Shown: positions 1,999-40,396 of the stretch, in pieces
Layout of the letters: every line of letters starts with the position of its first letter
Numbering within the stretch: the stretch's first letter is position 1
IMG/VR virus record: IMGVR_UViG_3300009068_004979
Strand: one strand, 5' to 3'
Length of the DNA: 64,000 nucleotides
From: a virus
Notes under the pieces: generated by a model
What the model was told of the DNA's origin: nothing
Database searches by the model: none
What the model saw: only the letters and a program-made list of their open reading frames with translations
Made by a program: the position numbers and the translations under genes

Positions 1999-3415
1999 AA
2001 AGTTTTATGCGTTTATCCATATGGGATTGGCCATACTTGAGATTATCTGCAATGTCTACTATTATAAGCTTATCTTTATCCTTATGCAAGCGAAGACCTC
2101 TGCCGATTGACTGTACAATTTTTATCTTAGCTTTTCCACCGCCTGCAAATATAATATAATGTAAATTTTTGATATTAATACCTGTAGAAAATATCTTTGA
2201 AATTGCTACAACAACAACATCATCACGCTCTTCCATTAATTTTTTAACTTTTTCTCTCTCATCTATTTCTACTTCACCTCTAATAAAATAAACATGCTTA
2301 TTAGGGCATGTTGTTTTTACTGCGTTGTATATATTTTCCCCATGTTCAATATAATCGATAAGAATAAGAGCATTTTTGTTTAAACCGCAGGATAATTTAG
2401 CTAAAAAATTATTTCTAAATGTATTAGATATTAGAAAGGATTGTTCAGCTCTGTAGCGATCTGTTGCGGACACATCGTGTATTGCATCTCTAAATGGGTC
2501 TCGGTTGTATGATATTCTTACAATCTGGACACTCACATTGCTAACATAATTTTCTAATCTGAGTTCATAGCTACTTTTTTCGTAAATTATCGGGCCAATT
2601 TTTCCAATAATATTCCATTGGTCAAGAGGGCCCTCAGGCATGGTGCCTGTGAATCCAAACCTTACTGGTGTTTTTATCTTTTTAAACAGTTTATTGATTT
2701 CATTTCCACGACGAATCTTATGAACCTCGTCAACAACTACAACATCAACATTTTCAATCCACGTTAAATCACTGTTCTTACTTTGTAATATTCCGAGATT
2801 AGCCACAATTACATTAGTAGAATTGATTGTACCATTATCAATTGAATGTGATCCGGTCCATCTGCAAACAGAGAACGGGACCTTATATGAAGAGAAATCG
2901 TTAAACGTTTGTTCTACTAGACCGAGATCTGGAACTATAATGATACATTTAAATTTGTTGTTTGCAGCCCAGATATTAGAAAGCACAGAAGCCATGGTAA
3001 GTGTCTTGCCACCAGCAGTCGCTAAAACAACAGTTCCGCGGCCTCTGTTCAAACATGTGCGCGTTATTTCTTCTTGGTAGTCTCTAAGCTGTAAAGATAG
3101 CGGGTATGGATCAAGCTTAAAATTTGGTAGGTCAAGCCACCTTGTTGGTGCAGGTGTACACTCGTGCTTAAATTCGTCTCCAAATTTTATCTCACCTGTA
3201 TATTGCCTGTTGATGAGGTATTTTTGTATTTCAAAAAATAAGCACGGTTCAAATTTTCCGGTAGGTGTTATTGCATATGTGCGCTGCGGTATGAAGCGAC
3301 CATACTTGCGCATAAAAGATGCAGCTTCATTCTTAACAGAGAAATGCTCGCGAATTTCATCTAAGAAATCGCAGGTTAGTTGTGCTTGGTTTTTTTCAAA
3401 TTTTATCTCTATCAT
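1949..3415 (-). CDS. uvsW: SF2 DNA helicase UvsW
   Basis: LRDYQ, TAGGKT, DEVH, GFTGT, STGINI, QSIGRGLR. Confidence 0.93.
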   Translation of the reverse strand: MIEIKFEKNQAQLTCDFLDEIREHFSVKNEAASFMRKYGRFIPQRTYAITPTGKFEPCLFFEIQKYLINRQYTGEIKFGDEFKHECTPAPTRWLDLPNFKLDPYPLSLQLRDYQEEITRTCLNRGRGTVVLATAGGKTLTMASVLSNIWAANNKFKCIIIVPDLGLVEQTFNDFSSYKVPFSVCRWTGSHSIDNGTINSTNVIVANLGILQSKNSDLTWIENVDVVVVDEVHKIRRGNEINKLFKKIKTPVRFGFTGTMPEGPLDQWNIIGKIGPIIYEKSSYELRLENYVSNVSVQIVRISYNRDPFRDAIHDVSATDRYRAEQSFLISNTFRNNFLAKLSCGLNKNALILIDYIEHGENIYNAVKTTCPNKHVYFIRGEVEIDEREKVKKLMEERDDVVVVAISKIFSTGINIKNLHYIIFAGGGKAKIKIVQSIGRGLRLHKDKDKLIIVDIADNLKYGQSHMDKRIKLYEKENINFAIKEIKES

Positions 3416-3804
3416 GTTGTTTCGAGCTTCATGATGTCAATGAGATTTTTGATATCATATGAAGTGCTGTTTAATGTTCTTTCAGATTTTTCTAATAACT
3501 CAATTACCAGTTCAATTTCTTTAATCCTTGCATCAGCTTCTGTTAATTCATTACTATTTTCTGCTGTTCTTTCGGCAACAGGTGCTGTTAACTTAACAGG
3601 GCTCATTTCGTTAATCTTATCAACAATGGCTCTTTTGAGTTTATCTCTATTCTTTTTAAGAGTAATGAGTTCTAGCTTATGACGTATGCATCTGCCTGCC
3701 CATTTGTGCTTGATACCCGGTAATCTTTGCTGATAATCCTTAAGGTTAAGTTCATCAAACTTAAGATCATTTTCTAGTTCAGTTATGTAATCTTCTAGGC
3801 GCAT
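3412..3804 (-). CDS. uvsY: Recombination mediator UvsY (start revised to ATG 3804)
   Basis: Helical protein DLKFDELNL...YDIKNLIDIMK, coupled to uvsW; promoter-like boxes lie just upstream of 3804. Confidence 0.75.
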   Translation of the reverse strand: MRLEDYITELENDLKFDELNLKDYQQRLPGIKHKWAGRCIRHKLELITLKKNRDKLKRAIVDKINEMSPVKLTAPVAERTAENSNELTEADARIKEIELVIELLEKSERTLNSTSYDIKNLIDIMKLETT

Positions 3805-3840
3805 TAACTTAAATAATAATATAAAGATACATAAAATCAA

Positions 3841-4098
3841 ATGAAACTATTTGAATCAGCCTTTAATAACGCTTTAAATGAAATGGCAAATACTGCCGGT
3901 GGGGCAGGTGGTGTGTTTACTGCATATGCGGGCACAGTAAATGCAGGAGAATTTGGCAATCAATTTCCTTCGCAAAATGATAAAGCGTATGCACCTGGTG
4001 ATGCAAGAGTTCCAAAAATCTTGGGAGCCAAATTTTCTAAGAAAAAGAAAAAATTAAAGTATCCTATTCAGCGACGTACATTTCTTCCTGGCAATTGA
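3841..4098 (+). CDS. Small late protein carrying a copy of the major capsid N-arm plus a poly-Lys tail
   Basis: FGNQFPSQNDKAYAPGDARVPKIL vs gp23 FGNQFPSQNDNAYAAGDARLPKIL; TAAATA at 3810-3815. Confidence 0.8.
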   Translation: MKLFESAFNNALNEMANTAGGAGGVFTAYAGTVNAGEFGNQFPSQNDKAYAPGDARVPKILGAKFSKKKKKLKYPIQRRTFLPGN

Positions 4099-4127: not shown

Positions 4128-4541
4128 ATGGATTTAGGTCATTGGCAGCTTCATGAAGGCATAGTTATAGATGAAAATACTTTTGGTTTTATCTATGAAA
4201 TAGTTAACACAATAACAAATAAGAAGTATATAGGTAAAAAACAGTGTAAGTCTAAGTTGAAGCGAAAGCCATTGAAGGGCAAAGTAAACAAAAGAATAGA
4301 GATAAAAGACTCGGATTGGAGAGAATATACAAGCTCCTCAAATGAGTTAAATGCTGATATACAGAAATACGGTAAAGACAAATTCATTTTCAATGTTATA
4401 CGTATATGTGGTAGCAAGTGGGAGCTTGCGTATTATGAAATTAAAGAGCAGATAGAGCGCAGCGTCTTGTTGAGTGACGGCTATTATAACGGCATAATAA
4501 ATGTAAGGATTGGCAGGCCTCCAAAGAAATTGCTTGAATAA
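4128..4541 (+). CDS. GIY-YIG (Seg-like) endonuclease
   Basis: GFIYEIVN...KKYIGKK, WREYTSS, E..EQ, YYN. Confidence 0.85.
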   Translation: MDLGHWQLHEGIVIDENTFGFIYEIVNTITNKKYIGKKQCKSKLKRKPLKGKVNKRIEIKDSDWREYTSSSNELNADIQKYGKDKFIFNVIRICGSKWELAYYEIKEQIERSVLLSDGYYNGIINVRIGRPPKKLLE

Positions 4542-5149: not shown

Positions 5150-5584
5150 ATGAACTTCAATGATAAAGTTAATAGTATATATAAGGTATTTTTAGAACAA
5201 GAACCTCCAAAGGATGCAACAGAACCGCAGGTTCCAGATGCATCAGCTATACCTGAGCCAGCAGCTGCTGCACAACCAAAAACCCAGGTGCCACCTGAAG
5301 GTTACGTGGATATAGTGAGACTTCTTGCCAAAGCACTTGTGATGGATATTCCTGCAGGGACGATAGATGATTTATTTACATTGCCTGTTACTGCAGAAAA
5401 TGCAGAAGAAGTCCGTGAAGGTCTAGAGAAAGCTATTAAACAAAATGAAATGTATGCAGATAATCCAGAAAAATTAGATAATGTACATTTTAAAAAGTTT
5501 GTTTCTTCTATTAATGAGAATAACTTCATGCAGCGCTACAAGAATATTCTTGCTATTATGAAGAAATATAGCAATTCAATTTAA
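5150..5584 (+). CDS. Putative internal head protein
   Basis: TAAATA at 5137-5142; N-terminus MNFNDKVNSIYKVFLE. Confidence 0.6.
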   Translation: MNFNDKVNSIYKVFLEQEPPKDATEPQVPDASAIPEPAAAAQPKTQVPPEGYVDIVRLLAKALVMDIPAGTIDDLFTLPVTAENAEEVREGLEKAIKQNEMYADNPEKLDNVHFKKFVSSINENNFMQRYKNILAIMKKYSNSI

Positions 5585-5587
5585 ACC

Positions 5588-7033
5588 ATGAACGAGGGTA
5601 AGAAATATAGAAGCCTGGATGAAGTGTACTTGCAGGAATCTTTCGCAAAAAAAGTACCCGAACTTCCGAGAACACGTGTGGTTTTTATAAAAGAAAATGC
5701 AGACGTTGTAATACAAAAAAATCCACCAAATGGTCAGGTTAGAGAGTTTGATGTGAGTGATGAAGTTGCTAATCAAATTATTAGTAGCATAGCGAGTCAG
5801 CAGAAACGCTCTACAGAGGAGGGGGAGCTATCTGTAAGCGAAATAATAGATAAAGTATTAATTAATGATGGATGGAAAGCAGGTAATAAGGAATATACAG
5901 CATTATTAGATAGAGTTATTAAAATTTTTACTTCAAGTAATTTTATAGCTGAAAAATTTAATAATTTAATTAAAATTCAAAAAGATAAAAATAATAAATT
6001 TCGTACTGCACTATTGGCAGCTCCAGGGGAAGTTTTTGCATACAAATCTCTAATATCTGATGCATTTATGCAATTGTTTGAGGGTGAAGATGGCTACAAA
6101 GTCGCCGAGAGCTTGTGGCCAATAACTTTTAAAGCTAGAGTAAATGTTGGTCCAGGAGAGCTTGCAATTACACTTTTATCAGATTCTATCAAAGGTAAAA
6201 CTGGTGATTTATTATTTAACGGATTTGGTGAAGTGGAGGTAAAAGGATCAGATGCACGCATGGGCGGAGGTGGCTATTGTCATAATAATACACCTACAGA
6301 ACTTAACAATATAATATCAAGTGAACAAGGAAAATTATCAGAAAAAACATTACTAAGAATAAAAGCTGAAACCTATAAGAGAATTGAAAATTTTATAAAA
6401 GAAAGAGAGCAGCTTAAGGGTAGAGTTGTAGTTCCAAAAGAAAAACAAATAGAATATTTATCTAGTATAAAAGATTCTCTTGATAATGCGGATAGCTTAA
6501 CTCAATTATTACAAGCTGTTGATAAATCTGGTCTTCCTAAGAATATTGTAAAGTCTTTAAGAACATCAGTTGAAGAATATACAAAATATAAAAAAGGCGA
6601 AGTCAAGGGTCAGTTTGCACCTGCATTTACAACTTTTTTCTCTATGGCTAGTGAATTAACCGATGAACAGCTCGTAAGAGGTATTGTAGCATCTAGAAGT
6701 TATGACAGTTCAAACATCTTTAACGATTTAACAGCTGCAATAAACTCTTTGTATTTAAAATACAAAGAAGAATTAATAGCAAACGGTACATTTACAAGAA
6801 ATTTAACACGGCTTGTTGGCGCTATGCATACAGCAATTTATCATCAAGTTCAAAAATTTAGGGGGATATTATTTTTAAACGATAGTACAAAAAATATGTT
6901 ATATTATGAATTTTCTAATAATTTAGAAAAAGATATAGATTCTCTTTATACTCTTTATAAAAAAACAAATGCAGTAATAAATTTAAGTATTGATAGCAAA
7001 TTTCAATCTGCCGGCATTTTACTTTCAATATGA
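5588..7033 (+). CDS. Putative virion protein with a PD-(D/E)xK nuclease-like motif
   Basis: VGPGE...GDLLFNGFGEVEVKG; N-terminus with YLQE. Confidence 0.5.
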   Translation: MNEGKKYRSLDEVYLQESFAKKVPELPRTRVVFIKENADVVIQKNPPNGQVREFDVSDEVANQIISSIASQQKRSTEEGELSVSEIIDKVLINDGWKAGNKEYTALLDRVIKIFTSSNFIAEKFNNLIKIQKDKNNKFRTALLAAPGEVFAYKSLISDAFMQLFEGEDGYKVAESLWPITFKARVNVGPGELAITLLSDSIKGKTGDLLFNGFGEVEVKGSDARMGGGGYCHNNTPTELNNIISSEQGKLSEKTLLRIKAETYKRIENFIKEREQLKGRVVVPKEKQIEYLSSIKDSLDNADSLTQLLQAVDKSGLPKNIVKSLRTSVEEYTKYKKGEVKGQFAPAFTTFFSMASELTDEQLVRGIVASRSYDSSNIFNDLTAAINSLYLKYKEELIANGTFTRNLTRLVGAMHTAIYHQVQKFRGILFLNDSTKNMLYYEFSNNLEKDIDSLYTLYKKTNAVINLSIDSKFQSAGILLSI

Positions 7034-8244
7034 ACTCCTTTAAATATTTTTATTTCTTAACTGAAGGCGGTGCTGCCGGGCATATGCTTCATCCTTTTGA
7101 TTTACCACAGGTTACAAATGGTAATGCTTTGATCAAAGTTTATAAGCAGACAGAGGCAAGCGTAAGGGAAAAACCAGCAGCAGTAAAAATTGATGGCTTG
7201 AATGCATCAATTAAGCTAATCACTAATGCTGATGGCAGTAAGGAATTTGCTCTTGATCGTGGCTCAAACAAGCAAGAAGATATACAGGGTGTGACGCTAG
7301 CCACGTTATCAAACCGGTTTCCACAAGGTCATGGAATGCTCGCAGTAGGTACTGATGTTCTGTCAATTTTTAATAAAGCTCTTCCGACAATAACAAATGA
7401 ACTAAAACGGTTAAAAATGCTTGATAATAGTAGCATACTTTTTAATATGGAATATGTTAAGGGTAATACAAACGTTATAGGTTATAAGGATAATTTCTTA
7501 GCTATTCACGGTCTAAATGAGATTTATCAGGTGACTAGTCCAATTAAGAAATCAGTAAGCAGGGCATCAAGAGAAATTTCTTATGATAAGAAGGCGTTAT
7601 CAGATTTAATAGAAAAGGTAAATAAAATAGCAAGGAGTTTTGACTTTAATGTTGTGGGTGAAATAGCGGCTACATTAACTCATAATATAAGCTTTGATTC
7701 AGAGTTAAATTCAGAATTTGCAGTAAAATATAATGCTGAACATGTTGAAGTGAAGACATTGCGTACCTGGTTACAAAAAGCAAAAAATCCGAAAGGTGTA
7801 ACAATCGCTCTTTCTAGTGGAAAGCGTGTAGATGCGCTTTCAAAGCAAATTTATTTAGCTGTGCTAGAGGGTCAAGAGCTCGACTCTTTGATAAAAGATA
7901 GAGATCAAACAGGTATAAAGAATGCCATTGATGGCGCGGTAATCTACCATGCAACACGTTTAATGGGTCAGAAGCTTCTCTCCTCCATGAAATCGCCTCT
8001 TGGTGATATAGAGACGCAAGAAGGTATTGTTATACGTGATCCTAAGATTTCTTCTGTTCCTTTTAAAATCACCGGTGAGTTTATAGTGCGCGGATTACAG
8101 AGCAAATTTAAAAAGAATGAACAAGAGGAAGGACCATTAACGAGAAGTACGCTGAATAACGTTAATTATATTAATACACCGCCTTATGAATATGAGGGCA
8201 GCAATTTGCGCTCAACACCGGGATTCAATATAAACCCAACATGA
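7030..8244 (+). CDS. Ligase-fold nucleotidyltransferase-like protein (DUF6267-like)
   Basis: EGGAAGHMLHPFD, KIDG (KxDG), EGIVIRD, FKITGEF. Confidence 0.6.
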   Translation: MNSFKYFYFLTEGGAAGHMLHPFDLPQVTNGNALIKVYKQTEASVREKPAAVKIDGLNASIKLITNADGSKEFALDRGSNKQEDIQGVTLATLSNRFPQGHGMLAVGTDVLSIFNKALPTITNELKRLKMLDNSSILFNMEYVKGNTNVIGYKDNFLAIHGLNEIYQVTSPIKKSVSRASREISYDKKALSDLIEKVNKIARSFDFNVVGEIAATLTHNISFDSELNSEFAVKYNAEHVEVKTLRTWLQKAKNPKGVTIALSSGKRVDALSKQIYLAVLEGQELDSLIKDRDQTGIKNAIDGAVIYHATRLMGQKLLSSMKSPLGDIETQEGIVIRDPKISSVPFKITGEFIVRGLQSKFKKNEQEEGPLTRSTLNNVNYINTPPYEYEGSNLRSTPGFNINPT

Positions 8245-8789
8245 AGTTTAAGTTTGACATTCTAGTAGAACAGCTTCTTGGTGAGAAGAAAGAACGCATA
8301 GCTCTCTTACCGGGTGGGTTTAAGCCACCACATAAGGGCCATTTTAAAGCATTAAGTTATATCTTGCAAGATGCAGATCGTGGCATTGTTTATATTGGAA
8401 ATAAGGAAAGGGATGGTGTAACGGCTGAACAGGCAAAGCAAATTTGGGAAATATATAAAAAGTATTTACCAAAGCCTATTGATATAGAAATTACAAAAAT
8501 TACACCAGTAAAATCGGTCTATGATTTTGTCGATAGTAATCTAGATAAACCTGTTATTGTTGGAGCTTCAGGTGATGAGGATTTAAAGCGTTTTGAATAT
8601 TTTAAGAAACATGCAGAAAAATATCCGTTAGTTACTGTTGTCAATATACCACCTCAGTATAATAGAATTTCAGGTACTGAAGCAAGAAAGAAAATTATAG
8701 GAAAAGAATCAGACGCCGTAGAGTATTTTGTACCTGAAATATCTGATCAAGATTTACTTAAGATAAAGAATATACTTCTTATTTCTTAG
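8241..8789 (+). CDS. HxGH cytidylyltransferase-like nucleotidyltransferase
   Basis: PGGFKPPHKGH and ISGTEAR motifs. Confidence 0.8.
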   Translation: MKFKFDILVEQLLGEKKERIALLPGGFKPPHKGHFKALSYILQDADRGIVYIGNKERDGVTAEQAKQIWEIYKKYLPKPIDIEITKITPVKSVYDFVDSNLDKPVIVGASGDEDLKRFEYFKKHAEKYPLVTVVNIPPQYNRISGTEARKKIIGKESDAVEYFVPEISDQDLLKIKNILLIS

Positions 8790-9549
8790 TTTCTAGTACC
8801 TTAATTGCTTCTAGAAGAACCTTTTCCACAATTTCACGAGATTCACTCTTGAGTGATTTTTTTAATGCATCTAATAGGGAGCCACCGCCTGAATTAATAG
8901 CTGAAAATAAATCGTTCTCCGTTTCTTCTTCTACATTTTCAAGGCTATGATTAAGCACTTCTCTGTGTTTTTCATAGTCCTTATAGCCAAAGATAGAATT
9001 CAAATCGCCTTGCGCTCTTGCAATTTTATCAAGAACCCATGGTTCAACATTTTCTTCATCACCGAGCAAATCGTGCAACATTGCTGCAATTTTAACAATA
9101 CGAAATAAGTTTTGCTTTGTCATGTAGCCGCCGTGTTCTTCACTGGAATGCTCGGATCCGTGCATCATATCGCATCCTTCACAATCTTCATTACTCTTTA
9201 GCGGAAGCTTGCCAGAGCCACCCATGGATTTATCAATGGCTCCGCCTCTTGCTTTTTCATACCCGGAAAGTTTACCATCTTTGTTTAAATCAGATTTCTT
9301 TACGTCTATTTCATCTTGATTTGCATGCTGATTAGCTTTGCATTCTGCACATCCATTGCATTTGCAACCTTCTGCAGCATACTTACATGTACATTCTTCA
9401 TTTTCACAATTGCACTTCTTTGTGACTGCAACAAATTTATCAGGTGTATACCCTGCAGCAGGGCTATTTTCACCCTGAGGACCTAGATTCATTTCATTGA
9501 TTCTAGCGTTATAAAGCTCATTCAATAGATAGAAATCCTTATTAAACAT
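8779..9549 (-). CDS. Putative internal head protein with a Cys cluster and an EF-hand-like loop
   Basis: CNCENEECTC...CKCNGCAEC; DLNKDGKLSGYE; EPWVLDKI; TAAATA upstream. Confidence 0.6.
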   Translation of the reverse strand: MFNKDFYLLNELYNARINEMNLGPQGENSPAAGYTPDKFVAVTKKCNCENEECTCKYAAEGCKCNGCAECKANQHANQDEIDVKKSDLNKDGKLSGYEKARGGAIDKSMGGSGKLPLKSNEDCEGCDMMHGSEHSSEEHGGYMTKQNLFRIVKIAAMLHDLLGDEENVEPWVLDKIARAQGDLNSIFGYKDYEKHREVLNHSLENVEEETENDLFSAINSGGGSLLDALKKSLKSESREIVEKVLLEAIKVLETKK

Positions 9550-9592
9550 ATGTTATATTAATATTTAGTCTTATGGCACATAAATATTTTAT

Positions 9593-9880
9593 ATGTTGTT
9601 TGAAAATGCATTTTATTTGGCACTTGATAATGAACTAGTTGAAGAGAGAAGCACAGGAAAATGCACAAAAGTTACCGGACAAATGTCATCATCTCGATCT
9701 GATAAAAAATACATGCGTTGTGCGCGTGTTGGTGGTAAGCTCAAGCGTGTACATTATGGGGATCCAAATCTAAGAATAAAGAAATCCAACCCAAAGCGTA
9801 GAAAAAGCTTCAGAGCTCGACACAAGTGTTCTTCTGCAAAACCCGGTACTGCAAAATATTTTAGTTGTAAAAACTGGTAA
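9593..9880 (+). CDS. Small basic T4-like phage protein (DUF6321-like)
   Basis: VHYGDPNLRIKKSNPKRRKSFRARHKC; TAAATA 6 nt before ATG. Confidence 0.75.
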   Translation: MLFENAFYLALDNELVEERSTGKCTKVTGQMSSSRSDKKYMRCARVGGKLKRVHYGDPNLRIKKSNPKRRKSFRARHKCSSAKPGTAKYFSCKNW

Positions 9881-9883
9881 CCT

Positions 9884-9889
9884 TAAATA
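9884..9889 (+). promoter_or_regulatory. gp55-type late promoter (representative of a TAA(A/G)TA family)
   Basis: TAAATA 5 nt before ATG 9895; the same geometry recurs at more than 15 late genes. Confidence 0.75.
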
Positions 9890-9894
9890 ATAAT

Positions 9895-10308
9895 ATGACA
9901 TCTTTTAAGCAATTCTATAAAAGACCTGTACTCGGTGTTGGTGAAGTAATAGATATTGCTGGTATAGGGTCTGTAAAAGCCAAGGTTGATAGCGGTAATG
10001 AGGCTTTTAATGTTTTGCATGGTACCAATATAAAGGATGAAAATAACGAAGTAAGCTTTACAACAATTAATAATAAGAACATTAAAAAGCCTAAGCACGA
10101 TACTATTACAATTCATATAGGCAGCGGTGTGAAGGAAGACAGGCCTGTGGTTTTATTTGATATAAAGATAGATGGTAAAGAGTATAAAAATATACCTTTT
10201 AGTATAGCTGATAGAACGGAGAACGATGAGCCTGTTCTAGTAGGTGAGCCGTTTGTGAGACAGCTAAATGCTCTTATTGATGTGAAGAGAGATAATACAG
10301 AAGATTAA
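9895..10308 (+). CDS. Retropepsin-like protease (RimK-associated 'ATP-dependent zinc protease' family)
   Basis: AKVDSGN catalytic-type motif, E.RPVV, DR...PVLVG. Confidence 0.75.
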   Translation: MTSFKQFYKRPVLGVGEVIDIAGIGSVKAKVDSGNEAFNVLHGTNIKDENNEVSFTTINNKNIKKPKHDTITIHIGSGVKEDRPVVLFDIKIDGKEYKNIPFSIADRTENDEPVLVGEPFVRQLNALIDVKRDNTED

Positions 10309-10958
10309 TTATTCTTCATGTTGGCAACAAAAGTATAAAATTCTGCTCGAACAGCAGCATCATTCATAAAGTCACCACTTAGCTTGCTTGTCTTCATCTC
10401 ACAACCATCATGCTTAATACCGCGGAGACATGCACATGTATGAGTTGCACTCACCATAACAGCTACACCGCGATTCTTCTCGCATACTTCATTAATTGCA
10501 TCATGAATTTGAATAGTAAGACCTTCTTGTATCTGAGGTCTGCGCGCATAAAACTCCACAATACGATTCAGCTTACTCAAGCCAATTACTCTGCCTTCAA
10601 GAGAAGGAATATAGGCTACATGTGCTTTACCGGTAAAAGCGAGATGATGATGACTGCACAAGCTCTTGACTGGAATACCACCTTGAAACACCATGCCATC
10701 ATAACCATTGCTCGGAAATGATGTTACTTTTGGTGGTTCATTATAACATCCTGCAGCAAGATCCTGCACAAAAGCTTTAGCAACACGACGAGGTGTATTG
10801 GTACTATTCGGATCATTACGCCAATCAAAGCCTAGAGCATCAAGATATGCTTCATAAGCTTTTGCAGCTTTCTCAATAATCTCAACTTTCTCTCCCTCTG
10901 TATGAGGATGGTTTCCGTTGGCAAACTTCAATCTTACAACTTTACTATATTCTGACAT
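10305..10958 (-). CDS. folE: GTP cyclohydrolase I
   Basis: TPRRVAK, SLCSHH, GLSKLNRIV, RPQIQE, HTCACLRG. Confidence 0.95.
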   Translation of the reverse strand: MSEYSKVVRLKFANGNHPHTEGEKVEIIEKAAKAYEAYLDALGFDWRNDPNSTNTPRRVAKAFVQDLAAGCYNEPPKVTSFPSNGYDGMVFQGGIPVKSLCSHHHLAFTGKAHVAYIPSLEGRVIGLSKLNRIVEFYARRPQIQEGLTIQIHDAINEVCEKNRGVAVMVSATHTCACLRGIKHDGCEMKTSKLSGDFMNDAAVRAEFYTFVANMKNN

Positions 10959-10966
10959 ATTGTGTT

Positions 10967-10994
10967 ATTATAATATATGTTTTACGTAGTTCAA
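10967..10994 (-). promoter_or_regulatory. Sigma70-like promoter of folE
   Basis: TTGAAC-N16-TATAAT-N8-ATG. Confidence 0.65.
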
Positions 10995-11007
10995 CATAAA
11001 TAATAGT

Positions 11008-12000
11008 ATGAAGTATCTTTCTCTATTACAAGAAAGCCTCAGAAGTCTCACACTAAAGCGCGTGAGAATAAAAATCGATCCTGCACAAGTTACAAAAGAA
11101 TGTGATTTTACGAAATGCACAGGTTATGAAGGTTATGTGCTTGAAGAATGTGGAGGCTCAATGAAAATATTGGTTCTATCCCCGGAGATGCCTGTGCATC
11201 AAATACCTGATGAATTTTTAGAAATTATATCAGATGTTCATGAGCATGATACTTTTGATGAATTTAAGGCTCTAGTTATAAAGCATCTGGTAGCAAGAGG
11301 TAAGACAGAGACAGATCCTGTATCACAGGATGTTTTAAGATCTGAAACTGTAGGCGAAATAGAGAGTGCACTCAGACAAGCAGGTGCTACTGAAGAAGAT
11401 TTGACAAAATTATATCGTCATTTTATTGAACATGAAGATGAAATACATGAAGCAAAAGATGAAGATTTGACTCTCAAGGATTATAAAGCTGCTGTAAAGC
11501 AGAAATACCAGGATTTAAAATCTAAAGCAAAAGACCCAGCAACATATCTCAAAGTACCCGGGAAAGCAGTGGGCTTAGCAGGCAAAGCTATTAGTGGTCT
11601 AGGATCTTTAGCGGGCGCTATTGGAGGCAAAGCTTCACAACCAGAGACTACACCACAAGCATTAGCATCAACTGTACAGACAATTGGTGGTGCTGTACAG
11701 AAGGTAGGTGCAAAGCTTCAGGAACCAGTAACAAAATTTCAACAGGCCGCAGCTAGACAAAAGTATGCTCCAGCAGAATTTGATTTGGGTGAAATTCTGA
11801 ATCCAAATGGCTTCTTTACCAAGAAAGATGCAGCAGGGAAGGTAATACCTACATATACACAAGCAGATATTAAATCAGGCAAAGTCATAAGCTATACAAA
11901 TAGATATGGCAAAAAGATCAGTTATAAGATTATCGGCACAGAAAAAGACAAAGCTGGTAATGTTGTTGTTAAGGCCGAACCACAAACAAAAGGTTACTAA
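11008..12000 (+). CDS. Hypothetical late/internal protein
   Basis: TAAATA 5 nt before ATG; MKYLSLLQE; Ala/Gly/Lys-rich C-terminal half. Confidence 0.6.
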   Translation: MKYLSLLQESLRSLTLKRVRIKIDPAQVTKECDFTKCTGYEGYVLEECGGSMKILVLSPEMPVHQIPDEFLEIISDVHEHDTFDEFKALVIKHLVARGKTETDPVSQDVLRSETVGEIESALRQAGATEEDLTKLYRHFIEHEDEIHEAKDEDLTLKDYKAAVKQKYQDLKSKAKDPATYLKVPGKAVGLAGKAISGLGSLAGAIGGKASQPETTPQALASTVQTIGGAVQKVGAKLQEPVTKFQQAAARQKYAPAEFDLGEILNPNGFFTKKDAAGKVIPTYTQADIKSGKVISYTNRYGKKISYKIIGTEKDKAGNVVVKAEPQTKGY

Positions 12001-36398: not shown

Positions 36399-36857
36399 AT
36401 GATTCCCTTGCAAGGAAATGGTAAATACAGGCAAGGTGTATTTCGTCCCCAAAATGCAGCAAAATACATTGGAAGAGAGCAGCCAGTGTACAGATCAGGC
36501 TGGGAATTAAAATTCTTTAGATGGTGTGACAATAATCCTAATGTAGTAGAATGGGCAAGTGAAGCCGTTGTTATACCGTACTTGAATCCTTTAGATGGTA
36601 AGTACCACCGTTATTATACTGATGGTATTGTAGCTATCAAAGAGGGAGACAAGGTGAACAAGTATATCATAGAGATCAAACCAAGTGAACAGCTGGCTAT
36701 ACCAGTTAAAGGCCGCAAAAGAATGAGTACCATGGTATATGAGAATAAAAGATATGTACAAAATCAATCCAAGTGGCAAGCTGCTAAGAAATGGTGCGAT
36801 CAACGCAACTTCAAATTTCTTATATTGACTGAAAAAGAATTAGGTATAAATAAATGA
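36399..36857 (+). CDS. gp4: Head completion nuclease
   Basis: KYIG, YRSGWE..F..WCD, WASE...IPY, IEIKP, NQSKW.AA, ILTE. Confidence 0.92.
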   Translation: MIPLQGNGKYRQGVFRPQNAAKYIGREQPVYRSGWELKFFRWCDNNPNVVEWASEAVVIPYLNPLDGKYHRYYTDGIVAIKEGDKVNKYIIEIKPSEQLAIPVKGRKRMSTMVYENKRYVQNQSKWQAAKKWCDQRNFKFLILTEKELGINK

Positions 36858-36869
36858 GCATTAAACCAA

Positions 36870-36875
36870 TAAATA
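36870..36875 (+). promoter_or_regulatory. Late promoter of gp21
   Basis: TAAATA-N5-ATG. Confidence 0.7.
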
Positions 36876-36880
36876 ATAAT

Positions 36881-37552
36881 ATGGCACTACATCTGCTTGT
36901 AGAAACTCCCGCTCCAGAAGAGCAATTTGAATATATTTTAGAGGAGAAAAACCCTAAAGAACCTGCAAAACTTTTTATTCAAGGGCCATACATGATGTGC
37001 AATGAAGTTAACAAGAACCAGCGTGTTTATGTAAGAGAAGACATGGAGCGCGAAGTGAGACGCTATGTTAAAGAGATGATTGATACAAAGAGAGCCATGG
37101 GTGAGCTCAATCACCCTACATCAGCTGAAGTGAATCTCGAAAGAGCATGTCATTTAACTACCAATCTTCGCATGGAAGGTAATTTTGTCTATGGAAGATC
37201 ACAAGTTCTCTCAACACCCATGGGACAAATTGTAAGATCTCTTATTAATGATGGTGTTAAAGTTGGCATGTCAAGCCGTGCTCTTGGCAAGCTAAATGAA
37301 GAGTCTGGTGGTGTTAACCGTGTAACTGACATGAGATTAGTAGCTGTTGACTGTGTTGCTGATCCATCGTGCCCCAAAGCATTTGTAAATGGTATCTTGG
37401 AAAGCAAACAATTTGTTGTAGCTGCAGATGGTACACTAGAAGAATTCTTTGAAAAATTTGAAAATAGTCTTAAAAATTTACCCAGAAAGGAAGTTGAATC
37501 GTTTTTAAAGGAGCAAATTCTTGGTTTCTTTAAAATGTTAAAAACCAGTTAA
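36881..37552 (+). CDS. gp21: Prohead protease (start revised to ATG 36881)
   Basis: NKNQRVY, GELNHP, TPMG, GMSSRALG, DCVADPS; TAAATA 5 nt before 36881. Confidence 0.95.
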   Translation: MALHLLVETPAPEEQFEYILEEKNPKEPAKLFIQGPYMMCNEVNKNQRVYVREDMEREVRRYVKEMIDTKRAMGELNHPTSAEVNLERACHLTTNLRMEGNFVYGRSQVLSTPMGQIVRSLINDGVKVGMSSRALGKLNEESGGVNRVTDMRLVAVDCVADPSCPKAFVNGILESKQFVVAADGTLEEFFEKFENSLKNLPRKEVESFLKEQILGFFKMLKTS

Positions 37553-37581: not shown

Positions 37582-37893
37582 ATGCCATTGAAATCCGGAA
37601 GCTCACAGAAAGTGATCAGTCAGAATGTTAAGACTGAAATGGATAAATTCAAGAAGACCGGTAAAATCGGAACATCCAAGCCTGAATCCAAAGCTGCAGC
37701 ACAAAAACAGGCTGTTGCCATTGCTCTTAAGAAAGCTGGCAAAAGCCAAGTTAGTGAGCAGCAAAATATAATTTCCTTTTTAAAAGCGGTTTCTCAGAAA
37801 AATTATTCTGAAGCAAATAAATATTTACAGGAAGTGGTTAATTCAAAGCTCAAAGCTAGAATAGAAGCTGCTTCCAAAAACAAAATTTTTTAA
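37582..37893 (+). CDS. Small basic prohead-core protein
   Basis: MPLKSGSSQKVISQN...QAVAIAL; lies between gp21 and gp22; late promoter. Confidence 0.6.
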   Translation: MPLKSGSSQKVISQNVKTEMDKFKKTGKIGTSKPESKAAAQKQAVAIALKKAGKSQVSEQQNIISFLKAVSQKNYSEANKYLQEVVNSKLKARIEAASKNKIF

Positions 37894-37896
37894 TTT

Positions 37897-38784
37897 ATGG
37901 AAACAAAAAACATCGTTAACATTCTAAGAGAAGCAACCAAGGATATTCTCACTGAAGATATTCTTAAAGAAATTGAAACAGCTTTTAATGACACAGTCAA
38001 TGAAAGAGTAACTATTCATGTTGAAAAAGCGCTAGCTGAACAGGATACAGATTATTCCAATAAGCTAGAGAAGCTTCTAGAAGCTATTGATGCAGATCAC
38101 ACAGTAAAATTAAACAAAGTAGTACAAGCTGTTGACGCTGATCGCGCCAAGAAGCTTGAGACTGTTGTTGAGAAATATCAGACTGCTCTTAATGAAGAAG
38201 CAGCAAAGTTTAAGACCAATTTAGTAGATCAAATCAGCAACTATCTTGATTTGTATCTAGAAGAAAAACTTCCTACAAAGGAATTGCAAGAAGCAGTAAA
38301 CAACAAGAGAGCCATTGAAATTCTAAATGAACTTCGTGGCACCCTCTCAGTTGATATGGCACTTGCTAAAGAGTCAATCCGCGACGCAGTCGTCGATGGT
38401 AAGACCAAATTAGATGAAGCTGCAAAGCAGCTTGAAGACGCCAATTCCAAGGTTACTTCTCTAACAGAGAGCCTTGAGAAGACAAGAGCTACATTAGTAC
38501 TTGAACAGAAACTATCTGGTTTAAATGCCGAAAAGAAAGAGTATATGAAAAAAATGCTCGACGGTAAGTCAGAAAAGTTTATTGTAGAGAACTTTAAGTA
38601 TACACTTGGTCTTTTCGAGAAAACCGAAGAAGAACGTCTCCAGAATCTAAAGAACGAGGCTGTCACTGAAACAGTATCAAAAGAAGTTGACAGACCCGTA
38701 ATCGAGGAATCGAAACAGGAAGCAAAGTCTGCAAGTAATGAACCAGCATTTGGTCTTTACATGTCAGAGCTTGGTAAGTATTGA
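37897..38784 (+). CDS. gp22: Prohead core scaffold protein
   Basis: Acidic coiled coil, ISNYLD motif, directly before gp23. Confidence 0.85.
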   Translation: METKNIVNILREATKDILTEDILKEIETAFNDTVNERVTIHVEKALAEQDTDYSNKLEKLLEAIDADHTVKLNKVVQAVDADRAKKLETVVEKYQTALNEEAAKFKTNLVDQISNYLDLYLEEKLPTKELQEAVNNKRAIEILNELRGTLSVDMALAKESIRDAVVDGKTKLDEAAKQLEDANSKVTSLTESLEKTRATLVLEQKLSGLNAEKKEYMKKMLDGKSEKFIVENFKYTLGLFEKTEEERLQNLKNEAVTETVSKEVDRPVIEESKQEAKSASNEPAFGLYMSELGKY

Positions 38785-38857: not shown

Positions 38858-40396
38858 ATGGCAAAACAAATCCGTCCTACACAGGCATACATTGATGAGT
38901 CTCGCGCTCGTGTGTTGCTTGAGAAGTGGGGTCCAGTATTGGACTACTCTTCCAACAACGTAAGAGCAATCGAAGACGATCACACACGTCTCAATACCGC
39001 CATTCTCTTGGAAAACCAGGAAAAGTGGTGCTTTGAGGCTAACAACGCTTCCGGTGGTACTGCAGGCGGCCTACCTTATGGTCAGGCTGGCTCAGGCGTA
39101 TTCGGTGGTGAAACAGGTGGCGCCGGTTCATTCGGCAACCAGTTCCCATCACAGAATGATAACGCATACGCCGCAGGCGATGCTCGTCTTCCGAAGATTC
39201 TCATCCCAATGATCAGACGTACGTTCCCTGAGTTGATCACTAACGAAATCGTTGGTGTTCAGCCCATGAGCGGCCCTGTCGGACTTGCTTTCGCACTTCG
39301 TTACAAGTATGAGCCTACCAACTTAGGTTATCAGTCTGGTTCGTTGGACGCAAGTTCATCATCCCAGTACTACAACAACCTAAGAGGTCTCTCTGCTAAC
39401 CCTGAATTGGGTTACCAGTACCTCGACACAAGATTCACTGGTGCTTCGTCATCAGCCTTGTCCGGGGCCACAGGTTTCTTCCAGATGCTCGATCAAGATC
39501 GTGGCGTTGCTCAGTTGCTCAGCCAGTTTGAGTTAACAAGCAATATCCCACAGATTGTGGTTAGCTTTGAGAAGACTGCAGTTGAAGCTGGTACACGTAG
39601 ACTCGCAGCTCGTTGGTCAGTTGAACTCGAGCAGGACTTGAAGAACATGAACGGTATTGATATCGACACTGAGCTCACAAACGCTATGTCTTATGAGCTA
39701 CAGGCCGAAATCGATCGTGAAATGATCATCAGAATGATTCAGACAGCACTCAACGCCGGTTACGGCCAAGGGTTCTCAGTCTGGTCACCTGCTTCAGCAG
39801 ACGGCCGTTGGCTCGTCGAGCGCAATCGTGACTTCTACCAGAGACTCATCGTTGAGGCTAACCGTATCGCTGTACGTAACCGCCGTGGTTCAGCTAATTT
39901 CGTTGTTGCAACACCTCGTGTGTGCGCAATCCTCGAAATGCTACCTGAATTCCAGTGGGCACCAGTACAGGGTAATGTTAATACTCAGCCAGTCGGAGTT
40001 GCAAAAGTGGGTTCCCTCGCAGGTCGCTTCAACGTGTATCGTGATACACGCACAGAGGCACAGTTCGAAGCAAATGCTGGCGGTAATTTCGGTGGCTCGG
40101 GTCCATTCCCAGCCAACGGTGTTACAGTCGCAAATACTCGTACAACACGTCTTGAATATGCTCTCCTTGGCTACAAGGGTCCGGAATTCTACGACACTGG
40201 TATCATCTATTGTCCGTACATTCCAGTCATGGTGCAGAGAACAATTGGTCCAAATGACTTCGCTCCACGCGTTGGTCTATTGACCCGCTATGGTGTTGTT
40301 GACAACATCTTTGGCGCTAATCTCTACTACCACGTCATCATCCTTCAGGGTCTTGGCACAGCATTCCTACCTGGTCAGCAAGCCGTTTACTTCTAA
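38858..40396 (+). CDS. gp23: Major capsid protein
   Basis: LLEKW.PVL, LLENQE, VGVQPMSGPVGLAFALR, ELEQDLK, YCPYIP, RYG. Confidence 0.97.
   Translation: MAKQIRPTQAYIDESRARVLLEKWGPVLDYSSNNVRAIEDDHTRLNTAILLENQEKWCFEANNASGGTAGGLPYGQAGSGVFGGETGGAGSFGNQFPSQNDNAYAAGDARLPKILIPMIRRTFPELITNEIVGVQPMSGPVGLAFALRYKYEPTNLGYQSGSLDASSSSQYYNNLRGLSANPELGYQYLDTRFTGASSSALSGATGFFQMLDQDRGVAQLLSQFELTSNIPQIVVSFEKTAVEAGTRRLAARWSVELEQDLKNMNGIDIDTELTNAMSYELQAEIDREMIIRMIQTALNAGYGQGFSVWSPASADGRWLVERNRDFYQRLIVEANRIAVRNRRGSANFVVATPRVCAILEMLPEFQWAPVQGNVNTQPVGVAKVGSLAGRFNVYRDTRTEAQFEANAGGNFGGSGPFPANGVTVANTRTTRLEYALLGYKGPEFYDTGIIYCPYIPVMVQRTIGPNDFAPRVGLLTRYGVVDNIFGANLYYHVIILQGLGTAFLPGQQAVYF

Follow-up and report, generated by a model that had tools for sequence, protein, structure and literature searches.

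The open reading frame at positions 3841 to 4098 of the window (the whole 64,000-nucleotide stretch of viral DNA analysed here) is a real and conserved gene under purifying selection, and its 85-residue product carries a separate copy of the gp23 N-terminal segment, gp23 being this phage's own major capsid protein. The best explanation for this mini-protein gene is that it belongs, in divergent form, to the kind of gene exemplified by T4 61.1, which is annotated but unstudied. As for its role, we see a roughly even chance that it supplies a head-loaded, protease-processed basic peptide that binds the partners of gp23's N-terminal segment. T4 head assembly is among the best-studied assembly systems, and a small gene that copies the N-fist of gp23 spans T-even phages, cyanophages and the uncultured clade of the window (332 cluster representatives), making it a conserved feature of T4-type heads for which we found no description and which is directly testable in T4. 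The version in the window is the clearest: it resembles its own gp23 most strongly and also has a Lys-rich insertion and an RR anchor. The features compared are:

3841-4098, + strand: mini-protein gene (85 aa, pI 10.1), supported by the open reading frame, BLASTP and selection
38858-40396, + strand: gp23-type major capsid protein (512 aa; Pfam Gp23, 5e-87)
39035-39226, + strand: gp23 segment copied by the mini-protein (gp23 residues 60-123), from the presumed maturation site to the RRTF motif

BLASTP aligned residues 14-81 of the mini-protein with residues 60-123 of gp23 (E 8e-15; 38/76 identical). The sole gap on the gp23 side was a 12-residue Lys-rich insertion in the mini-protein, and the mini-protein side had two smaller gaps, both within the Gly/Ala spacer. 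A first-pass annotation made from the letters of the sequence had reported that the 24-residue cores at 3952-4023 and 39131-39202 are identical at 21/24 positions and that 17 of the 21 identical residues use different codons; both counts were reproduced, with the same codon at 4/21 residues and 49/72 nucleotides identical. Also confirmed were a Gly/Ala spacer with GVF and an RRTF motif after the core in both proteins, as well as LNE (residues 12-14) and a KKKKK run (residues 67-71) in the mini-protein. We noticed that codons of the shared core end in C or G in gp23 (TTC, AAC, CAG, TAC) and in T or A in the mini gene, a contrast in keeping with codon selection acting more strongly on the capsid gene, which is expressed at very high levels.

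The mini gene lies 33 kb from the head cluster and not between the portal and protease genes. Its product had no Pfam match even at E 10, belongs to no family in Pfam, PHROGs or NCBIfam, and aligns with gp23 residues 60-123 only; the HK97-fold body (P, A and I domains) of the Gp23 family PF07068 is absent from the 85-residue protein. Searching the isolated-phage collection with the mini-protein by tblastn gave no match. The closest gp23 in that collection is ~31% identical and comes from cyanophages, and the clade of the window has no cultured member there.

Relatives of the mini-protein were found at every scale of search. A word-indexed protein search returned 26 small relatives, and IMG/VR yielded 80 loci, about a third of which were the gp23 N-terminus itself. 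A profile search over 1.84 billion cluster representatives (50% clustering; E <= 0.001) gave 332 matches, most of them 60-100 aa long. The gene order was fixed beside uvsY: uvsW(-) and uvsY(-) followed by the mini gene (+) in 36/36 mini loci examined, with a SegE-like GIY-YIG gene (+) after the mini gene in 30/36 and usually two more ORFs after that. Synonymous sites were saturated (pS ~0.7), pN was 0.15-0.23, and dN/dS was ~0.11-0.15 where dS was finite, values that are not neutral. The gp23-like core was the most constrained part (pN/pS 0.11), as compared with 0.33-0.40 for the leader, spacer, basic stretch and tail. With synonymous sites saturated and the protein retained, the earlier claim that the protein sequence is being conserved, rather than the DNA recently copied, stands. 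The immediate surroundings of the gene are:

3412-3807, - strand: uvsY, the conserved divergent neighbour, which anchors the synteny uvsW-uvsY / mini-GIY-YIG
3808-3840, no strand assigned: 33-nt divergent control region, with a TAAATA-type motif on the + strand (3808-3816) and a sigma70-like promoter on the - strand (3840-3813)

The downstream gene at 4128-4541 (+) encodes 137 aa with only a SegE-like GIY-YIG domain; it is 55-81% identical across loci, better conserved than uvsY or the mini gene, and its best PHROG (447) is labelled 'NAD synthetase'. Given this conservation and synteny, it is a resident gene and not a sporadic homing endonuclease. In T4, segE also adjoins uvsW.

A late promoter had also been proposed for the mini gene. 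The TAAATA-type motif is present at 3808-3816, and many structural genes have a motif of the same type 7-20 nt upstream, as does gp23 at 41 nt; however, the motif overlaps the uvsY promoter region, as the sigma70-like TTGATT-N16-TATTAT of uvsY (3813-3840, - strand) lies within the 33-nt gap upstream of the mini gene. Since both are in the same stretch, its conservation does not prove that the mini gene has a late promoter, and the gap, with promoter-like motifs on both strands, reads as a compact divergent control region. We infer late expression of the mini gene. In T4 the uvsY promoter is also the site of the replication origin oriF.

The mini-protein divides into four parts:

3883-4026, + strand: residues 15-62, copy of the mature gp23 N-terminal segment (Gly/Ala spacer and the 24-residue core at 3952-4023)
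3841-3882, + strand: residues 1-14, a leader resembling the T4 capsid-targeting sequence (CTS), with aromatics at positions 4 and 8, ending in LNE, the presumed prohead-protease site
4027-4062, + strand: residues 63-74, Lys-rich insertion, missing from gp23
4063-4095, + strand: residues 75-85, C-terminal piece with an invariant RR, matching the gp23 segment that joins the N-arm to the ordered body

Alignment to the solved T4 gp23 placed residues 112-152 of the window's gp23 on T4 residues 92-132. The copied segment falls just upstream of this and thus corresponds to T4 residues 66-105, so that residues 15-62 of the mini-protein, judged by alignment, match the N-fist of T4 gp23* by position. 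In the unexpanded T4 head, segment 66-105 is disordered and internal and probably touches the scaffold core, and the head-length mutations A66D, A94V and G97S fall in it (PMC9546572). Once the head has expanded, it forms the external N-arm and the N-fist of 25 residues; the N-fist touches four subunits and contributes to the Soc site (PMC9958956, PMC9546572). Portal-facing N-fists are disordered (PMC7136217). Among relatives, the Lys-rich insertion varies from 6 to >40 residues.

The leader of the mini-protein is amphipathic, and leaders of its relatives always end in (L/I/M)-x-E and are followed by residues that resemble the first residues past the presumed gp23 maturation site. The T4 CTS is a 10-residue leader; its targeting depends on positions 4 and 7, and its cutting by gp21 at L/I-x-E depends on positions 8 and 10. 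Leaders of the family fit this pattern, one of them (L047) at all four reported key positions (4, 7, 8 and 10). The earlier suggestion of a gp21-type cleavage site thus agrees with the sequence, in that the leader ends in L-x-E of the type cut by T4 gp21. Cutting after residue 14 would leave a putative processed protein of 71 aa with a pI of 10.3. The window also encodes a candidate enzyme for this step, next to the head genes:

36854-37552, + strand: gp21-type prohead maturation protease (PHROG 207, 2e-59), the presumed processing enzyme
37897-38784, + strand: presumed gp22-type scaffold, placed by its position between the protease and gp23; no family match

Quantification of CTS-like leaders across the window revealed them on 11/71 ORFs as compared with 2.4 expected, 7/11 of them at 3.8-12 kb; this enrichment is only suggestive because the leader pattern was written after looking at the data. 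Genes with CTS-like L-x-E leaders behind TAAATA motifs start at 5150, 7030, 8241, 8779 (-), 9593 and 11008 (window 5150-12000), and those at 5588 and 9895 perhaps belong with them. The 95-aa ORF at 9593 has a leader that closely resembles that of the mini-protein. We regard these genes at 5150-12000 as candidates for head-loaded proteins. Separately, the protease and presumed scaffold genes flank a basic 103-aa ORF at 37582-37893 (+), which matches PHROG 2423 (unknown function; E 6e-10) over its first 21 residues and may encode a small core protein.

The first-pass annotation knew of no such arrangement in T4, but T4 does have it. When we searched each phage's own gp23 N-terminus against the genome of the same phage, the second match in T4 was gene 61.1, which encodes 54 aa and lies upstream of the primase gene. 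Its product matches T4 gp23 residues 57-93 at 17/37 positions (E 1e-9), a copy of the N-fist, and consists of a CTS-like leader, the copy and then a KKKK run. Homologues of 61.1 were present in 1432 phage records, a count that includes weak matches to gp23 itself. In Miller, ZZ1 and V07 the module forms the C-terminal third of a ~160-aa protein, and a gene of this type adjoins the primase gene in T4, Miller, ZZ1, V07 and S-SCSM1. Direct comparison of the window's mini-protein with T4 61.1 by BLASTP was not significant (E 0.57), and the mini-protein matched neither PHROG 1823 nor PHROG 2086, the families of T4 61.1. Profile comparison of the two families by hhalign gave 80% probability (E 1.4e-5), which is compatible with common descent without proving it. 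In our literature search the sole mention of 61.1 was its listing among conserved ORFs of unknown function (PMC1524935), and we found no paper on its likeness to gp23 or on the function of such genes. Since 61.1 sits in an early/middle operon and no late promoter was seen within ~150 nt upstream, it fits a head protein less well.

Counterparts were also found in cyanophages, in a form present in 288 phage records. In S-SCSM1 the second match was ORF97 (E 4e-9 to its own gp23), which RefSeq calls 'major head protein'. Its depositors, who carried out mass spectrometry on virions, entered it as 'virion protein', and the supplementary table of their paper lists ORF97 as hypothetical only. The ORF97 frame (NC_070962 93082-93306; L118 3083-3307) stays open for a further 39 nt upstream, as far as an ATG; a start there adds 13 residues as a leader with I-R-E at its end, so the annotated start is probably 39 nt too far downstream. 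We also noticed an overlap of ORF97 with the ORF that follows ('holin-like'). Proteins of 174-232 aa begin with the module in Syn9, P-RSM4 and P-SSM7, and for this reason the two S-SCSM1 ORFs might equal one gene elsewhere. The same self-search of P-SSM2 with its own gp23 N-terminus gave no second copy.

We then asked how closely the copies follow gp23, by scoring each of 19 minis against each of 19 gp23 N-termini. Own-lineage scores were 56-109 for T-even phages, 45-111 for cyanophages and 114-173 for the seven minis of the window clade that keep the core, as compared with a cross-lineage range of 17-45. The minis of Syn9 and P-RSM4 scored highest against their own gp23, and the Syn9 mini and its own gp23 have an 8-residue lineage-specific string in common. 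By these scores the minis follow gp23 even though no resemblance can be recognised among the N-fist sequences of the three lineages. Within the window clade, a mini did not score higher against its own gp23 than against the gp23 of other genomes, and the core hardly varies. The co-variation proposed in the first-pass annotation therefore holds by lineage but not site by site within the clade. In a deeper sub-clade, an A-to-F change before YAPGDAR occurs in both minis and gp23; co-variation at this site is only suggestive because no contig there carries both genes. Two genomes, G003 and G005, keep the mini gene with a decayed gp23-like core, and their gp23 keeps the motif. Their decayed minis score 26-53, which overlaps the cross-lineage range, and indicate that mimicry is not always required.

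The module also occurs in larger proteins. In some relatives the whole of it, leader included, is fused behind GNAT, cREC_REC + DUF5661 or unknown domains, and in others a C-terminal domain follows it, so that fusions occur at either end. Such an extra C-terminal domain continues the module in L029 (10001-10594), L050 (9403-9942) and L066 (4818-5246), giving fusion proteins with total lengths of 198, 180 and 143 aa, and no Pfam family passed the threshold. In these three the GIY-YIG gene is not at its usual place right behind the mini: L029 and L050 lack it there, and in L066 it lies ~1.2 kb further downstream. Being fused to varied domains, the module looks portable, and it probably also works as a transferable tag by which proteins are loaded into the head or anchored there.

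Our preferred reading, which we hold at about even strength, is that of a head-loaded peptide that binds gp23's partners. It draws on the gp23 homology, the conservation and selection, the tracking of gp23 by lineage, the modular fusions and the protease gene in the window, all of which we observed. The mini gene would be expressed late and its product taken into the assembling prohead, where a gp21-type protease would remove residues 1-14. The remaining 71-residue basic peptide would bind whatever gp23's own N-terminal segment binds, candidate partners being the scaffold core while the head is still a prohead and/or, in the expanded head, neighbouring gp23 subunits, and its Lys-rich stretch may contact DNA. 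A DNA-binding role cannot be general, as processed T4 61.1 would be acidic (pI 5.0). A more specific proposal, which we put forward as doubtful, is that phages across the T4 superfamily use the portable copy of the gp23 arm as a capsid-docking tag: by imitating the arm, it would enter the prohead or shell lattice at arm-binding sites and would keep a DNA-binding tail or a cargo enzyme in place on the inner wall. If true, the tag would add a second head-loading signal whose mechanism differs from that of the 10-residue CTS, and T4 gene 61.1 would gain its first function; the tag would also explain the holding of some proteins in T4-type heads and offer a handle for cargo loading.

Three other roles also predict that the copy follows gp23. 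It is unlikely, in our judgment, that a cytoplasmic gp23 fragment serves as a decoy, occupying or blunting a host abortive-infection sensor or protease that recognises new capsid protein. Such a fragment would have to track the phage's own gp23 sequence, so the lineage-level tracking would be expected of it; host sensing of capsid protein is established for Gol/Lit (PMC3014915), and the place of T4 61.1 among early/middle replication genes, with no late promoter in the ~150 nt upstream, suits a decoy as well. The copied segment, however, is the most variable part of gp23, and a decoy predicts neither the protease-site leader, the TAAATA-type motif and the Lys-rich stretch nor the fusions to varied domains and the cyanophage 'virion protein' label. 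Nor is the copy a Gol mimic, since it reaches only a few residues into the conserved Gol region. A decoy, if true, would point to a host sensor of the capsid N-terminus. We likewise think it improbable that the peptide acts in the prohead as a competitor of the gp23 N-terminal segment for scaffold core or protease and is then expelled, tuning nucleation, head length or the timing of cleavage and expansion as an analogue of gp67, gp68 or Inh. That the T4 head-length mutations A66D, A94V and G97S map to a segment that probably contacts the scaffold speaks for such a regulator, as do the span of the copy, which in T4 covers the maturation site region, and the head module of the window, which has no recognisable gp67 or gp68; yet the mini-protein gave no BLASTP alignment to gp67 or gp68, and fusions to enzyme-like domains fit a loading tag better.

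There is only a slim chance that the processed peptide acts as a cement, filling N-fist/N-arm sites left without an arm (for example near the portal or at pentons) and stabilising the shell or tying DNA to it, which was the main idea of the first-pass annotation. The module ends exactly where the ordered gp23 body starts, and in T4 each N-fist contacts four subunits, the N-fists of the five portal-facing subunits are disordered and the vertex protein gp24 is without an N-fist. A gp23 search of relatives judged up to 91% complete, G001-G005 (L017, L018, L020, L021 and L037), returned only gp23 and the mini, with no gp24-like vertex paralogue, and the same search does recover gp24 in T-even phages (RB69, Miller and ZZ1). 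Against this, the T4 N-fist is on the outer surface after expansion, which is hard to square with an internal peptide reaching DNA, the RR anchor is missing from T-even 61.1 proteins, and the decayed cores of G003 and G005 argue against a strict structural need. Lastly, the SegE-like GIY-YIG gene directly downstream might suggest a dead remnant of a partial gp23 duplication, perhaps carried by that neighbour, to which we give next to no credence given the saturated synonymous sites with a conserved protein (dN/dS ~0.1-0.15), the 332 family representatives and the fixed synteny. A remnant left by a homing endonuclease is ruled out, the GIY-YIG neighbour being itself conserved and syntenic.

Among known systems, the nearest to the mini-protein is T4 61.1 ('hypothetical protein'; PHROG 1823/2086). 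Both are small, with an L/I-x-E leader, a copy of their own gp23 past the maturation site and a Lys-rich run after it; L/I-x-E stands directly before the copy, and the corresponding motifs in the window are LNE at 12-14 and KKKKK at 67-71. The window variant differs from 61.1 in locus, late-type motif, RR anchor, internal Lys-rich insertion and basic product. T4 61.1 belongs to the early/middle 41-61 operon and precedes the primase gene 61, whereas the window gene stands beside uvsY behind a TAAATA motif and not upstream of a primase gene. T-even 61.1 proteins are without the RR that the window's mini-protein has; the Lys run of T4 61.1 is terminal and followed by acidic residues, whereas the Lys-rich insertion in the window is internal, and processed T4 61.1 would be acidic overall in contrast to the basic peptide of the window. 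S-SCSM1 ORF97 and the N-terminus of Syn9 gp190 resemble the mini-protein in having a copy of their own gp23 N-fist followed by a basic stretch, and the RR motif is found in S-SCSM1 and S-CAM9 as in the window. Cyanophage copies track the gp23 subtype, and some are auto-annotated as 'major head protein'. Unlike the mini-protein, several cyanophage forms have a very short or absent leader, and the module often heads a protein of 174-232 aa near the primase gene.

Compared with the N-fist/N-arm of T4 gp23* (residues 66-105), the copy is the positional equivalent. Inside the prohead the T4 segment is flexible, and once the shell has expanded it makes contacts both within capsomers and between them; the mini-protein, in contrast, is a separate polypeptide with a Lys-rich insertion and no HK97-fold body as a tether. 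Its sequence pattern also recalls T4 IPI-III and Alt, with an aromatic N-terminal leader (aromatics near positions 4 and 7), a putative L/I-x-E cut site, a basic mature part and neighbouring late genes in the window that bear similar leaders. Unlike IPI-III and Alt, its predicted mature part copies a capsid-protein segment and is not a folded effector, and its family is conserved and not hypervariable. The Gol peptide of T4 gp23, which acts in Lit/EF-Tu exclusion, is likewise a short N-terminal piece of gp23, with an activity of its own. Gol, however, is the most conserved stretch of gp23 (29 residues), and the mini-protein is without it, its copy ending at RRTF, where that block starts. T4 gp67 and gp68 are small, protease-processed head-assembly proteins, as the mini-protein may be, but they have no sequence similarity to it, gp67 is acidic, and both are encoded inside the T4 head gene cluster.
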